From Escherichia coli (lineage in GTDB: Bacteria > Pseudomonadota > Gammaproteobacteria > Enterobacterales > Enterobacteriaceae), in NCBI RefSeq assembly GCF_003334785.1, contig NZ_QOWV01000041.1: a DNA stretch of 5,793 nucleotides; one strand, 5' to 3'. Each line of letters starts with the position of its first letter. The first letter of the stretch is position 1. Shown here in pieces: positions 599 to 5,253 of this stretch. The notes beneath the pieces are model-generated. The model was not told where the DNA came from. It worked only from the letters and a program-made list of their open reading frames with translations, and did no database searches. Position numbers and translations under genes: made by a program.

Positions 599-1201
599 TC
601 AACTGTGAGCGGCATCAACCGATGTACGGTATGCCATAAGCACGTACTGATCCATCAGATTTGTCAGTGGTTCACTCTGACCCTGACGTGCAATGATCCA
701 TTGCTCCAGATCTTTTTCTGATTTGTGTTTCAGGTTTTTCGTCCAGTCGTCAAGGCTGTTTCCGGTCATTAAGTCAAGCCAGCAGAGCCAGACCAGTTTG
801 AGACGTAACTCCGTGCCGCCAAACTGACGGAAGAGGCTGATCAGTTTGTTTGCCAGAGAATGTTGCTTCAGGCGCTCACATTCAGACAGCAGGATCCCTT
901 CCAGCATCGGATGATGAACCAGCAGGTGTTCGCTGGTGCATAAATTCACCACCAGATCATCATCCAGGGACGGGGAGCTCCGTTTGTCCGGACCATAAAT
1001 CAGCCGGTGCAGACTCTGGGGAACGATGGCAATCTCCGGTTTTTCGCCATTGAATGACACCCACCCGGGCGTCAGATTATGGAAATAGTAGATATTCGGA
1101 TGACACACGCCCCATGATACGGCGTGCCGGGTGAAGCCGGTCAGCCATTTCTGGTAGTTTTCATGGAGCAGCTCGTAACGGGTCTGATACTGTTGTTTCA
1201 T
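599..1201 (-). CDS. Hypothetical protein (~200 aa), no family recognised; downstream of and co-oriented with alpA
   Basis: Long ORF on the minus strand (six-frame track 599..1216). Likely start is ATG at 1201 with GAGGA 8 nt upstream; alternative starts are ATG 1207 and GTG 1216. It sits 87 bp after the alpA stop and is followed by the hairpin. No motif I can place. Confidence 0.65.
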   Translation of the reverse strand: MKQQYQTRYELLHENYQKWLTGFTRHAVSWGVCHPNIYYFHNLTPGWVSFNGEKPEIAIVPQSLHRLIYGPDKRSSPSLDDDLVVNLCTSEHLLVHHPMLEGILLSECERLKQHSLANKLISLFRQFGGTELRLKLVWLCWLDLMTGNSLDDWTKNLKHKSEKDLEQWIIARQGQSEPLTNLMDQYVLMAYRTSVDAAHS

Positions 1202-1294
1202 TTTCATATTCCTCACGGGGGATAACAGGCAGCAGAGCGCCGCCGGCAGGCCGGAGATTGCGTCTGCTGTGGGCGAAGGGTTAGTGGTTAAAAA

Positions 1295-1507
1295 TTACGG
1301 ACGGGACTGTGCAATACGCGCCTGCAGCCAGGCTTCCACTTCACTTTTCAGCCAGCGGGAGCTGCGCCCCATTTTGATGGGCGCAGGAAAGCCCCCATCT
1401 TTGATGAGTTTGTCAAACCACTTATCGGTTAGGCCGGTCAGTTGAGTGATAAACGCCATGTCGACCATCTGGTCATCCATCAGCGAAACTGGGGTATCCC
1501 GCTTCAT
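1295..1507 (-). CDS. alpA: AlpA-family phage/island transcriptional regulator (MerR-like HTH, excisionase-type)
   Basis: Translation MKRDTPVSLMDDQMVDMAFITQLTGLTDKWFDKLIKDGGFPAPIKMGRSSRWLKSEVEAWLQARIAQSRP carries the AlpA signature (HTH followed by GFP.P.K.G....W...E...W). Size is 70 aa from ATG 1507, with AGGG 5 nt upstream; the track ORF begins at TTG 1510. Start is uncertain; internal Mets at 1480 and 1468 are possible. Confidence 0.85.
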   Translation of the reverse strand: MKRDTPVSLMDDQMVDMAFITQLTGLTDKWFDKLIKDGGFPAPIKMGRSSRWLKSEVEAWLQARIAQSRP

Positions 1508-1922
1508 CAATGCCCTGAAAGCCCGAATCGACGCTTACCAGAAACGTAAGCATCGGGAAGGTAAACGCGTGCATCCCACAACCCTGCATTACGTCTGGGC
1601 CCGGGAGTTTGGGGAGTGCAAAGGTAAAAAACACTATCACCTGATGCTGCTGGTTAACCGGGATACCTGGTGTCGTGCCGGTGATTACCGTGCTCCGGGA
1701 TCACTGGCCGGGATGATTAAACAGGCGTGGTGCAGTGCCCTGGGAGTGGATGTCGGGTGCCATGCCACGCTGGTGCATTTTCCGGCCTGGCCGGCGGTGT
1801 GGCTGGAACGCGATGATGACACTGGCTTTCAGCAGGTGCTGGAACGTGCTGACTATCTGGCGAAGGAACATACCAAAGCTCACTGCACCGGTGAGCGCAA
1901 TTTTGGCTGTAGCCGGAGTTGA
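1446..1922 (+). pseudogene. YagK/YfjJ-family (inovirus Gp2-like, HUH-motif) replication-initiator-like protein, 5'-truncated remnant
   Basis: The ORF contains ..VSRFINALKARIDAYQKRKHREGKRVHPTTLHYVWAREFGE..KKHYHLMLLVN..LVHFP..ADYLAKEHTK..FGCSRS, matching my recollection of this family including the HYH (HUH) motif and the C-terminal FGCS end. The N-terminal ~90 residues of the family are missing. An in-frame TGA at 1443-1445 precedes the ORF, and the expected upstream space is occupied by alpA on the opposite strand. Confidence 0.6.
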
Positions 1923-2175
1923 GCACGACTGGCGCGCCAATACCCGGCAAACCAAAAGTATGGGTTGTTGTCTGGCGGCAACGATGTATCCACTCGCCCA
2001 CTGACTGTTTTTTACGTCAGTGTTCCATTGTGTGACAACCACAGTGCTGTAACAGCAACCAGCCTGCTTTACCCAAACTCCAGTCCAGATTTTAACTGAA
2101 CCGCCATTCACACCCTGACCACGCTGCCCGTACCGGGACGGCTGTTGCCTGCGTGTCGTCTGACGGCTGAGGAAT

Positions 2176-2583
2176 ATGACTATGTACGCAAAATCCTTTA
2201 TCGCTCTTGATGGCAACGGACGTCTGACGGGCGCCCGTACTGCACAGGCCGCACCTTATGCTAACTACACCTGCCACTTGTGTGGCAGTGCACTCAGATA
2301 CCATCCGCAATACGACACTGAACTTCCCTGGTTTGAACACACTGACGACAGGCTGACAGAGCACGGTCAACAGTGCCCTTATGTCAGGCCGGAGCGCAGA
2401 GAAATACAGTTGATTAAACGTCTGCAGCAATTCGTACCGGATGCCTTACCCGTGGTGCGTAAAGCCAGCTGGCACTGCAGACAATGTCACCACGATTATT
2501 ATGGGGAGCGGTACTGCACACACTGCCAGACCGGAGGATTCAGTATTCCCCGGACAACTCAGGAGGAAATATGCGAATTCTGA
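2176..2583 (+). CDS. Cysteine-rich zinc-finger / zinc-ribbon protein A (135 aa): CoiA-N-terminal-like CxxC..PWFEH module plus C-terminal CxxC-x9-CxxC ribbon
   Basis: ORF with ATG at 2176 (or 2182, 8 nt after GAGGA at 2169-2173). Contains YTCHLCGS..PWFEH and WHCRQCHHDYYGERYCTHCQTGG. It is a clear paralogue of the next gene, and conservation of the Cys/His pattern between the two argues that it is a real gene. Confidence 0.75.
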   Translation: MTMYAKSFIALDGNGRLTGARTAQAAPYANYTCHLCGSALRYHPQYDTELPWFEHTDDRLTEHGQQCPYVRPERREIQLIKRLQQFVPDALPVVRKASWHCRQCHHDYYGERYCTHCQTGGFSIPRTTQEEICEF

Positions 2584-2978
2584 ACTGTTATATGGCGAAT
2601 GACAGCAAAGGCCATTTTGTTACGGCGAAAGAAGCAGCGAAGCACAACCGCCAGGACGTTTTGTGCTGTGTGTCCTGTGGATGCCCGTTAACACTTCAGC
2701 GGGGCAATGACGGACAACCACCGTGGTTTGAACATGACCAGATGACTGTCGCTGAGAAAATCCTGCTGCGATGCACCTGGCTTGACCCGGCAGAGAAAGA
2801 GGCCCGTCGTTTGCATCTGCAGGGTATGACGGTTCCGGATTATACGGTGAAGGTGAGAAAGTGGTTTTGTGTGATGTGTGACGAAAATTATGAGGGGGAA
2901 AAGTGCTGCCCGAGTTGTGCTACCGGGGTATACAGCAGGGAGGGGGGGCAGGAGGGCAACTGGAAGGATAGGAACTGA
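2571..2978 (+). CDS. Cysteine-rich zinc-finger / zinc-ribbon protein B (135 aa), paralogue of protein A
   Basis: ATG 2571 is preceded by a consensus AGGAGG at 2561-2566 (4-nt spacer). The track ORF 2484..2978 starts further upstream, but the RBS supports 2571. Contains LCCVSCGCPL..PWFEH and FCVMCDENYEGEKCCPSCATG. It overlaps the stop of gene A (2581-2583) by 13 nt, suggesting translational coupling. Confidence 0.8.
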   Translation: MRILNCYMANDSKGHFVTAKEAAKHNRQDVLCCVSCGCPLTLQRGNDGQPPWFEHDQMTVAEKILLRCTWLDPAEKEARRLHLQGMTVPDYTVKVRKWFCVMCDENYEGEKCCPSCATGVYSREGGQEGNWKDRN

Positions 2979-3181
2979 GCGGTTCAGTCGCGGAAATCAG
3001 TTGCAGAGCTGTAATGATATCTCCGGGAGTGCTGCGTTGGTAGGGGCATCCCGGGATAGAGAAATTTTAGCACTTTGCCCTGAATGATTGTAGACGTCCC
3101 GAGTACTCGTACCGGTCTGAGTTATTACAGTTAGATATTCACTTTTTCTCCCGCATACTTCACATCTGTCAACGACGGATG

Positions 3182-3208
3182 AAAAGTGGTTCTTCCGCAA
3201 CCTGGGTG
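3182..3208 (+). repeat. Left terminal inverted repeat of the ISL3-family element
   Basis: AAAAGTGGTTCTTCCGCAACCTGGGTG at 3182-3208 matches the reverse complement of 4889-4915 (AAAAGTGGCTCTTCCGCAACCTGGGTG) at 26 of 27 positions. Confidence 0.75.
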
Positions 3209-3261
3209 GAAGAAAATGGATGAAACTTTCTGGCGAACAAGGATCTAAGCTGTTTTAAGTT

Positions 3262-4881
3262 ATGGGCAACGCAATGCACTCTCTTAAGACACTTCTACAG
3301 TTACCTTGCGGATGGCGATGCAGTCGACAAATTATTAGCTCTGACGGTATAACCCTCCATCTCCACGGAAAACGCAAAACAGCACAATGTCCTGAATGCT
3401 TTAAGCGTAGCGACTCTGTTCATAGTTGTCGTCGGCGCCGGATACAGCATCTACCCTGCTCAGGGCAGACGCTATGGCTTGTATTTTCCGTCCGCCACTG
3501 GTACTGCCGTAACCCGGCTTGTTCACGTAAAATTTTTGCCGAGTCGCTTGCTCCCTTCGCCAGTTCACACCAGCAGTCTTCACAGGCGTTACAAAATTAA
3601 CAACGTCAACTGGGATTAATAGCTGGAGGTGAGGCTGGAAAACGGGCTGCAACGGCAGTGGGTCTCCGTTGCAGTGCTGATACTCTTCTTCGCAGGCTTA
3701 TCAATACCCCGGAGACGAAACAGTCAGGCGCGCCTCATGTCGGTATTGATGAGTGGGCGTGGCATCGGGGCCACTGCTGCGGTATGTTAATAGTCAATCC
3801 TGATACTCACCGTCCCCTCGTCCTGCTTCCCGGCCGTGATCAGCGTACGCTGGCGACCTGGTTCAGAAAATATCCGGAAATACAGGTTGTCTCGCGTGAT
3901 CGCAGTGGAGTCTATGCGACAGCAGCACGTGAAGGTGCACCTCAGGCCAGACAGGTGGCCGATCGATGGCACCTGCTAAAAAATATTGGTGATGAGCCTG
4001 AACGAATGATGTACAGATATATGCCTCTGATACGTCTTGTTGTCAGAGAGTTATCACTGAAGAAATCACCTGAGCCAGAAATATCTGTGCCTGTAGCATC
4101 GCTCCGTCGTCTGGAACGCCTTAAACAGCACATCCGCAAAAAACGGCATCAGCGTTGGACAGAGGTTATGGCCCTGCATAACAAGGGATGTAGTTTCAGG
4201 GAAATATCCCGTATTACAGGCCTGTCGCGAGTGACAGTCAGTCGCTGGGTGGGTTCAGGAACATTCCCTGAAATGTCAACTAGGCCTCCAAAGCGAGGGC
4301 TTCTGGACCCATGGAGGGAGTGGTTAAAAGAGCAACGAGAATGTGGTAATTATAACTCCGGCCGGATATGGCGGGAAATGGTGGCCAGGGGGGTTACAGG
4401 CAGTGAAACCATCGTCAGGGATGCTGTTGCCAAATGGCATAAAGGCTGGATCCCACCGGTTACTACTGCCGCAAGACTTCCTTCAGTGTCCCGGGTAAGC
4501 CGCTGGTTGATGCCCTGGAGAATAATCAGGGGTGAAGAAAATTATGCTTTCCGATTTATTAGTCTGATGTGTGAAAAAGAACCGGAGTTGAAAATAGCGC
4601 AGCAACTGGTACTCGAGTTCTACCGTATTCTGAAAACCTAAAATAAATCACAGCTAAGCAGCTGGTTCACTCGGGTCCACGAAAGCGGCTCAGCAGAACT
4701 TCGGTGCGTAGCTGCGGGGATGGAAGCTGATGCTGCGGCTATATGTGAGGCAATCAGCAGTCGCTGGAGTACTGGTGTTGTCGAAGGTCATGTAAATCGC
4801 CTGAAGGTGCTGATACGCCAGATGTATGGTCGAGCCGGACTTGAACTACTTAGGCGGAGGGTAATGAGTCCACTGGCATGA
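3262..4881 (+). pseudogene. ISL3-family transposase, ~539 codons in a single frame, interrupted by two in-frame TAA codons (3598-3600 and 4639-4641)
   Basis: The track ORFs 3262..3600 and 3658..4641, plus the unlisted segment 4642..4881, are all in frame 1. Family-like sequence continues directly across both TAA codons (..QALQN*QRQLGLIAGGEAGKR.. and ..EFYRILKT*NKSQLSSWF..STGVVEGHVNRLK..). There is no frameshift. Confidence 0.8.
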
Positions 4882-4888
4882 AAATCTT

Positions 4889-4915
4889 CACCCAGGTTGC
4901 GGAAGAGCCACTTTT
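4889..4915 (-). repeat. Right terminal inverted repeat of the ISL3-family element
   Basis: CACCCAGGTTGCGGAAGAGCCACTTTT at 4889-4915; its reverse complement matches the left repeat. It begins 8 nt after the transposase stop (4879-4881). Confidence 0.75.
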
Positions 4916-4924
4916 GCACTGTTC

Positions 4925-5253
4925 GTGACAGTATGGCCTTTATGTACTCACTTTGTTACCGGTAGCTGGATCATCACTACCGTGCCGCAAATGGTGGTGA
5001 ACAGCATCAATTGTGGAATGAATGTTGCCGAAGCGACCAATGCGCCTCGTTTCCACCATCAGTGGTTGCCGGACGAGCTGCGTGTTGAAAAGGGTTTAGT
5101 CCGGATACGCTCAAGCTGCTGGAAGCAAAAGGTCAGAAAGTGGCGCTGAATGAGGCGATGGGCAGCACGCAAAGCATTATGGTTGGGTCGGATGGTGAGT
5201 TGTACGGCGCATCCGACTCGCGCTTGGTGGATGATTTAACGGCGGGGTATTAA
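4925..5253 (+). pseudogene. ggt: gamma-glutamyltranspeptidase 3' remnant, 5'-truncated at the IS and carrying a -1 frameshift
   Basis: Translation ..VTGSWIITTVPQMVVNSINCGMNVAEATNAPRFHHQWLPDELRVEKG, then after a frame change PDTLKLLEAKGQKVALNEAMGSTQSIMVGSDGELYGASDSRLVDDLTAGY* (stop 5251-5253), matches the GGT C-terminus as I recall it from E. coli. One T is missing from the T-run at 5095-5097. Relative to the remembered sequence there is also a probable 12-nt in-frame deletion (GSPGGSRII read as GSWII). The 5' boundary is approximate. Confidence 0.8.

Follow-up and report, generated by a model that had tools for sequence, protein, structure and literature searches.

A tandem pair of paralogous zinc-ribbon genes in the conserved backbone of CP4-57/CP4-44-type islands of Enterobacterales

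The window, by which we mean the whole stretch of 5,793 nucleotides that was analysed, is Escherichia coli chromosome that is 100% identical to strain AST198 and lies in the degraded CP4-44-type island between tmaR/yeeA and cobU. Two overlapping genes in this island encode small paralogous proteins, which are referred to here as ZnR-A and ZnR-B. The features of the locus are as follows.

Positions 599 to 1216, minus strand: 205-aa open reading frame (ORF), 60% identical (E of 7e-86) to a 197-aa ORF found after alpA in islands of Klebsiella and E. coli.
Positions 1295 to 1510, minus strand: AlpA-family HTH gene, inverted relative to the canonical alpA-to-ZnR orientation.
Positions 1446 to 1922, plus strand: truncated inovirus-Gp2-family (YfjJ/YagK-like) gene, annotated by PGAP as 'inovirus Gp2 family protein, missing N-terminus' and matching phrog_25019 at 5e-38.
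Positions 2124 to 2153, plus strand: conserved noncoding leader element, CTGCCCGTACCGGGACGGCTGTTGCCTGCG, 29 nt upstream of the start of gene A.
Positions 2169 to 2173, plus strand: Shine-Dalgarno-like GAGGA of gene A, 8 nt 5' of the ATG at 2182.
Positions 2182 to 2583, plus strand: ZnR-A gene, 133 aa, with DUF7828 (a predicted CoiA_N-like CCHC finger) and Zn_ribbon_11 (a predicted C4 ribbon).
Positions 2561 to 2583, plus strand: A/B junction, a site of putative translational coupling, with AGGAGG at 2561 to 2566, the ATG of gene B at 2571 and the TGA stop of gene A at 2581 to 2583.
Positions 2571 to 2978, plus strand: ZnR-B gene, 135 aa, a paralogue of ZnR-A with domains identical in kind.
Positions 3166 to 4931, plus strand: ISL3-family insertion sequence with 43-nt inverted repeats (3166 to 3208 and 4889 to 4931) and a transposase pseudogene (3262 to 4881).

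The original prediction described two same-strand ORFs that overlap by 13 nt, with AGGAGG ahead of the second, and these coordinates were confirmed. Both ORFs are on the plus strand, the overlap spans positions 2571 to 2583 (ATGCGAATTCTGA), and the AGGAGG ends 4 nt 5' of the ATG of gene B. The two products had also been said to be paralogous end to end at roughly 30 percent identity. BLASTP agrees, giving 31% identity over 118 residues (E of 2e-15) for ZnR-A against ZnR-B, and all of the motifs that the two proteins were said to share were found in the family alignment. The claim that the proteins are identical in length, at 135 aa, proved less robust. An in-frame ATG at 2176, upstream of the ZnR-A start, would yield a product of 135 aa (ORF A, positions 2176 to 2583). 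PGAP, however, places the start at 2182, giving the 133-aa 'putative zinc ribbon protein' WP_000270974.1; gene A homologues of other genera begin with MYAKSF and have a conserved AAGGA 9 nt upstream. The aligned AAGGA/GAGGA box is kept across loci ahead of gene A. Because of the MYAKSF starts, the AAGGA box in other genera and the PGAP start, ZnR-A is most likely 133 aa rather than 135 aa in length. ZnR-B is annotated by PGAP as WP_032179971.1, 'zinc-ribbon domain-containing protein'.

Both window proteins are full-length members of one family and are identical or nearly so to WP_000270974.1 and WP_032179971.1. In Pfam scans, DUF7828 (PF25165) matched ZnR-A with an E value of 2.8e-31 and ZnR-B with an E value of 7.7e-31, and Zn_ribbon_11 (PF11682, formerly DUF3279) matched them at 1.3e-9 and 2.3e-17, respectively. 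The same architecture, DUF7828 followed by Zn_ribbon_11, was present in 19 of 19 aligned relatives. When A-type and B-type proteins were aligned together, the residues C33, C36, W52-F53-E54-H55, W99, C101, C104, G110, C114, C117, T119 and G120 were invariant, among them all four cysteines of the C-terminal CxxC-x9-CxxC ribbon, and C67 was near-invariant (90% or more). This invariant cysteine and histidine pattern predicts a CCHC site in the N-terminal domain and a C4 ribbon, and therefore two putative zinc sites per protein. The AF2 model had a pLDDT of 82.

When 1.84 billion representative proteins were searched with a profile, 288 representative clusters of the family were recovered, nearly all of them 60 to 170 aa in length, with no enzymatic fusion among the best 150 matches. 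Pfam scans of ZnR-A and ZnR-B revealed no catalytic, enzymatic or effector domain. NCBIfam, PADLOC and PHROGs returned nothing significant for either protein; the best match in PADLOC-DB 2.0 was PDC-S64 at an E value of 0.15, which is chance level, and no defence-system model was matched. A sequence search of the PDB gave chance matches only and no solved structure related by sequence, and Foldseek against AFDB50 returned family members only. A type II toxin-antitoxin pair was also considered and rejected: the overlap is present, but the products are mutual paralogues, and no toxin or antitoxin family was found in Pfam, NCBIfam or PADLOC.

The homology and structure searches that had been proposed for the two proteins named a family, DUF7828 plus Zn_ribbon_11, without an assigned function. 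Its members are called 'Ybl85' in UniProt and 'putative zinc ribbon protein' in RefSeq, and a literature search for DUF3279, DUF7828, PF11682, Ybl85 or the RefSeq accessions found nothing relevant. The statement that the arrangement is not a described system thus stands for the literature that was searched, whereas the family itself is already in Pfam, UniProt and RefSeq. The gene pair is catalogued and annotated in thousands of genomes and belongs to an ordinary, uncharacterised family, so it is not itself a discovery. The annotation of the family does not record that the A and B genes occur in tandem or that they lie in the backbone of an island.

The N-terminal domain had been likened to the zinc finger of the competence protein CoiA, with the nuclease missing and a ribbon in its place, and this domain reading was largely right. 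CoiA, the transformation D-loop resolvase of Bacillota, consists of PF25164 (CoiA_N), PF06054 (a PD-(D/E)XK nuclease) and PF25166, and genuine CoiA proteins have all three domains. Comparison of the N-terminal zinc finger of ZnR-A and ZnR-B with that of CoiA supported remote homology or identity of fold, and we conclude that the first CCHC finger of the ZnR proteins is remotely homologous to the N-terminal finger of CoiA. The Pfam CoiA_N model (PF25164) gave no significant match, with an E value of 0.35 for ZnR-B only and 0 of 19 family members at E≤0.1. Both the PF06054 nuclease and the PF25166 C-terminal domain were absent from Pfam scans of ZnR-A and ZnR-B, whose chains end about 45 residues past the finger domain. 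The ZnR proteins have a C4 zinc ribbon in place of the nuclease and C-terminal domains of CoiA, at about 133 aa they are shorter than CoiA (about 380 aa), and they are found in Enterobacterales islands, whereas CoiA is found in Bacillota competence regulons. CoiA has been reported as limited to Bacillota. A CoiA-type finger, so far reported only from Bacillota competence nucleases, is now placed in enterobacterial mobile elements.

A 901-bp stretch of the locus was present in 3,800 of 5,426 complete E. coli genomes, at a median of 2 places per genome and in up to 7. The exact ZnR-A protein was found on at least 1000 public contigs and the exact ZnR-B protein on 239, and A-type proteins occur across Enterobacterales at about 60 to 70% identity. 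A scan of GTDB species genomes yielded 25 loci, Salmonella, Mixta, Hafnia, Siccibacter, Yersinia, Budvicia, Serratia, Buttiauxella and Erwinia among them; the genome survey was seeded with A-type sequences only and is biased toward loci that contain gene A. All credible loci are Enterobacterales islands or plasmids. Matches in three metagenome-assembled genomes labelled Collinsella, Bacillota and Clostridiales (L011, L012 and L034) lie on short contigs that are 84 to 96% identical to E. coli island DNA, and they are probably binning contamination and not real distribution. Plasmid matches were rare (33 of 72,556 records), and those inspected carry the same island module. No family homologue was found in 50,697 phage genomes. 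The CP4-44 and CP4-57 regions of K-12 contain no family member, and the genes therefore have no K-12 gene name.

In the window, both genes are intact despite the decay of the island around them. The truncated Gp2-family gene belongs to the usual upstream backbone neighbours of the pair by synteny. The AlpA-family gene and the 205-aa ORF form an inverted backbone unit that overlaps the 5' end of this truncated gene (599 to 1534), and the backbone at 599 to 1534 is thus an inverted or chimeric junction of two island layouts. On the other side, the ISL3-family element cuts the island 187 bp after gene B, and the usual downstream genes, UCP030791/'inovirus-type Gp2' and DUF2913, are therefore missing in the window. 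The inverted repeats of this element are 81% complementary and an internal stop interrupts its transposase gene; the element adjoins a gamma-glutamyltransferase fragment (about 4925 to 5250) and the php gene. An ORF at 44 to 223, a region for which the RefSeq record has no annotation, resembles the N-terminus of an IS21-family IstB helper protein (IS100-like).

The junction between the two genes is conserved well beyond the window. Ten intact overlapping pairs were found in different species, nine with a 13-nt overlap and one, L025, with an overlap of 10 nt. The 13-nt overlap ATGCGnnTnCTGA follows GGAGG or AGAGG in L005, L014-L019 and L039. Because both the overlap and the Shine-Dalgarno box are kept across species, translational coupling between the genes appears to be old and maintained. 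A-type and B-type proteins are each nearer to their own orthologues (45 to 96% identity) than to each other (about 30%), which indicates that the duplication is older than the spread of these island lineages.

Both genes had been predicted to be under selection, and orthologue comparisons across genera gave dN/dS values of 0.1 to 0.3 for A and for B wherever dS was measurable. These values bear directly on the idea that the pair has lost its function and survives as a decaying relic. The state of the window island, with its truncated Gp2 gene, inverted alpA, ISL3 insertion and pseudogenes, would suit a relic, as would the frameshifts in gene B in several genera. Given the selection data, we reject this reading as largely refuted and regard it as highly improbable. 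The invariance of all predicted zinc ligands and the intact ORFs in thousands of E. coli genomes argue against it as well.

Gene B is frameshifted or missing beside an intact gene A in L008, L013, L020, L024, L028-L030 and L036, and B is less constrained than A. Since B is often decayed where A is intact, ZnR-A can function without its partner, and we doubt that the two form an obligate complex. The A-B heterodimer was modelled with AlphaFold as a fused A-(G4S)6-B chain; the pTM was 0.47 and only one of five models reached a pLDDT of 70, values that do not establish a heterodimer.

To place the pair in its islands, loci were mapped with the family HMM and reference neighbour genes. Downstream of alpA and inovirus-Gp2-type genes, and on the same strand as these, an intact pair was found in Salmonella, Hafnia, Mixta, Siccibacter, Budvicia, Serratia oryzae and Klebsiella plasmids; the position is shared by Yersinia and Trabulsiella, whose gene B is decayed. 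Two layouts were distinguished. In the first (L015-L019), a Gp2-family gene is followed by alpA, A, B and a UCP030791-like gene. In the second, alpA is followed by the 197-aa ORF, a 190-aa Gp2-like ORF and gene A, with B present in L013 and L014 and absent from L008 and L036. One or the other layout recurs in Salmonella, Klebsiella, Mixta, Hafnia, Siccibacter, Yersinia, Budvicia, Serratia and Klebsiella plasmids, and alpA and/or a Gp2-like gene lies no more than about 2.5 kb upstream on the same strand in L008-L010, L012-L024, L026-L032 and L035-L039. The gene after B (UCP030791, PF27752; region 8852 to 9391 in L005) is called 'inovirus-type Gp2 protein' by PGAP, so that in intact islands the zinc pair lies between two different Gp2-type genes. 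In the Klebsiella plasmid L039 (region 9900 to 11148), a DUF2913 gene comes after the UCP030791/'inovirus-type Gp2' gene. The divergent side carries genes for a YfjP-like GTPase, a YfjR-like WYL protein, DUF932, antirestriction, RadC and CbeA/CbtA, which are typical of CP4-57/CP4-44 islands.

The two sides of the pair differ in how widely their genes are shared. ORFs of 100 aa or more within 5 kb of the pair were counted as shared when five or more of 19 other loci had a homologue on the same side. By this measure 40% of the upstream ORFs were shared, compared with 7% downstream; unique ORFs made up 74% downstream and 34% upstream. The cargo that follows the zinc gene or genes includes an SNF2 helicase, an AAA protein, an S8 protease and a methylase in L008 and TerB, a BrxC-like ATPase and a DEAD helicase in L036. 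With conserved genes upstream and variable genes downstream, the pair is the last conserved element before the variable region and is backbone, not cargo. These data make the pair a conserved backbone component of integrative islands of the CP4-57/CP4-44/SRL type in Enterobacterales. The pair had been assigned to the cargo position of its island, and that placement has to be revised: in many genera its place next to alpA and Gp2-type genes is constant, and the variable cargo starts downstream of it. Of the expected mobile context and conserved pairing, the recurrent AlpA/Gp2 islands and the recurrence of the pair were found, whereas gene B is often decayed or missing beside an intact A.

The same comparison weighs on the possibility that the pair is a small cargo module, namely, an anti-phage defence or anti-defence system or the regulator of one. 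The pair adjoins variable defence-like genes such as those of L008 and L036, the slot after yfjJ in K-12 CP4-57 is occupied by AbpAB and RnlAB, and the family is small and confined to mobile islands, all of which could be expected of such a module. Nevertheless, it is the genes after the pair that vary and not the pair itself, whose synteny with alpA and Gp2 is fixed across genera. PADLOC gave no match, the proteins have no enzymatic or effector domain, and no phage homologue was found, although one could be expected for a family of anti-defence genes. We therefore regard a defence or anti-defence module as rather unlikely; nothing ties the pair to either role, and the link to defence that had been suggested for it found no support.

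The backbone neighbours of the pair are shared with known systems. CP4-57, CP4-44, the Shigella SRL PAI and the Pseudomonas tmRNA islands have in common AlpA, a Gp2-family protein, a YfjP-like GTPase and a YfjR-like WYL protein, as well as DUF932, RadC, CbeA/CbtA and variable, often defence-like cargo, and K-12 CP4-57 and CP4-44 differ in that they are without the zinc pair. Pseudomonas islands with int, alpA, Gp2-like and RadC genes and defence cargo are a comparable class, and these genes have been proposed as their core functions (PMC12595487). The published ORF list of the Shigella SRL PAI gives 'no similarity' for those that follow the AlpA gene (PMC6980539). The zinc pair is unmentioned in published descriptions of int/alpA/Gp2-like/RadC islands.

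Upstream of gene A, the leader element follows the consensus CTGCCC-N5-7-GGGACGG-N6-7-CCTGCG, in which GACGG and CTG are invariant and GxCCC-N5-7-GGGxC forms an imperfect inverted repeat. It was found in about 30 loci (L005-L038), including those of Budvicia and Serratia, 30 to 50 nt upstream of gene A. The element occurs about once per locus and always just 5' of gene A, whichever gene lies upstream, and the block, within the last ~70 nt before A, is kept in Budvicia and Serratia though the flanks have diverged. Two explanations of the element were examined and discarded. As an RNA structure it amounts to a 5-bp hairpin of -1.9 kcal/mol without covariation (RNAalifold) and without an Rfam match, and when it was inspected by eye as a sigma-54 promoter, the GG and GC positions were not in a consistent register across the alignment. 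Neither the window nor L008 has a sigma-70 consensus promoter near the pair. The leader may be a protein-binding site or an unstructured operator.

This element invites the reading that the ZnR proteins are RNA-binding autoregulators that act on their own mRNA by way of the leader upstream of A, controlling its translation or its stability. It is a 30-nt element at a fixed distance from the Shine-Dalgarno box of A and is conserved despite diverged flanks, and zinc ribbons are common in RNA-binding proteins; the ribbon profile matches of the family are generic and include a ribosomal protein and Nop10. However, the leader has neither covarying structure nor an Rfam family, and autoregulation alone would give no reason to keep the module. 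Taken together, these points make RNA autoregulation quite improbable.

A different kind of regulator is suggested by Ogr and Delta of P2 and P4, which resemble the ZnR pair in being small zinc proteins of a mobile element, with Delta being a tandem duplication. On this reading, ZnR-A and ZnR-B would be zinc-finger transcription factors that contact RNA polymerase and activate island or helper genes, and their targets would be promoters elsewhere and not the leader. The ZnR proteins have no sequence or profile match to Ogr/Delta, their cysteine spacing and size differ, and their genes were not found in the phages and satellites searched (PHROGs and 50,697 phage genomes). Pfam gave no match to Ogr_Delta, even at E≤10, or to any transcription-factor family, no PHROG match was significant, and the generic ribbon matches do not favour such a role. 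A transcription factor of this type is therefore unlikely.

The position of terminators differs among the islands. The Gp2 gene and alpA of Hafnia are separated by a strong terminator (L015, 6341 to 6366), and no terminator-like site was found from alpA to the gene after B, which is consistent with a single alpA-A-B-Gp2-type transcription unit. In Klebsiella, an intrinsic terminator with a 9-bp stem and GTTTTTT lies between the 190-aa Gp2-like gene and A (L008, 7847 to 7868), so cotranscription with the backbone is not universal. The window retains only the T-run of that terminator (2006 to 2013; region 2006 to 2020, TGTTTTTTACGTCAG). Pseudomonas AlpA is an antiterminator, and by analogy, antitermination by AlpA might fit the terminator layout upstream of A.

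The reading that we prefer, tentatively and as a real possibility, is that ZnR-A and ZnR-B work jointly in the AlpA/Gp2-dependent life cycle of the island, where they would bind nucleic acid or a DNA-processing partner. It builds on the domain architecture, the homology to CoiA_N, the synteny and overlap, the purifying selection and the absence from phages. ZnR-B would be translated by coupling to A through the 13-nt overlap, and the two proteins would act together, probably as a hetero-oligomer. The CoiA_N-like finger would bind nucleic acid or a DNA-processing partner, and the pair would thereby serve the AlpA/Gp2-dependent cycle by controlling or assisting excision, replication or transfer, with the leader element just 5' of A as a candidate site for regulation of the pair. 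Several points count against this reading: little function is transferable from the N-terminal finger of CoiA to ZnR-A and ZnR-B, and the proteins are near neutral (pI of 7.06 for A and 6.86 for B), whereas many DNA binders are basic. The scores of the fused A-B model, the frequent decay of B beside an intact A, the terminator ahead of A in some island types and the bias of the survey toward loci with gene A also weigh against it.

A more specific proposal, which we offer as speculative and think unlikely, is that the pair, as a relative of the CoiA finger that lacks the nuclease, recognises a DNA structure and serves as a specificity or loading factor for a Gp2-type rolling-circle initiator, possibly at 2124 to 2153. 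If true, this would define how common defence-carrying enterobacterial islands replicate or mobilise after AlpA-triggered excision. Islands of the CP4-57/CP4-44 type are present in most E. coli genomes and hold much of the variable defence and virulence cargo, and their excision, replication and movement are still poorly understood. A selected, coupled pair of zinc proteins with a conserved cis element at the border between backbone and cargo provides a concrete and cheap handle on the life cycle of these islands.

The family also includes proteins of about double length that look like A-B fusions. P0200 has 238 aa and two matched stretches, and the Salmonella AFDB entries A0A5U8JH18 (241 aa) and A0A735VZ17 (247 aa) are about twice the usual length. 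Since gene B is read in the -1 frame with respect to A, frameshift mutation or sequencing error may have produced these proteins, and inspection of the A-B junction showed no obvious slippery site.

Some Serratia loci contain three or more tandem copies of the family (L021, 1592 to 4234; L025, 6 to 1324), and in several loci a short upstream ORF has a weak match to part of the ribbon (L016, 6634 to 6867; L022, 6716 to 6886). The zinc module has been duplicated repeatedly. In E. coli, the proteins P0142, P0148, P0153 and P0158 carry a third type of N-terminal sequence (MNGIKTGLGITPGEHIISADSALS...) on a B-type C-terminal half. Together with the hybrids P0149 and P0170, these chimeras suggest recombination between paralogous copies in different E. 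coli islands.
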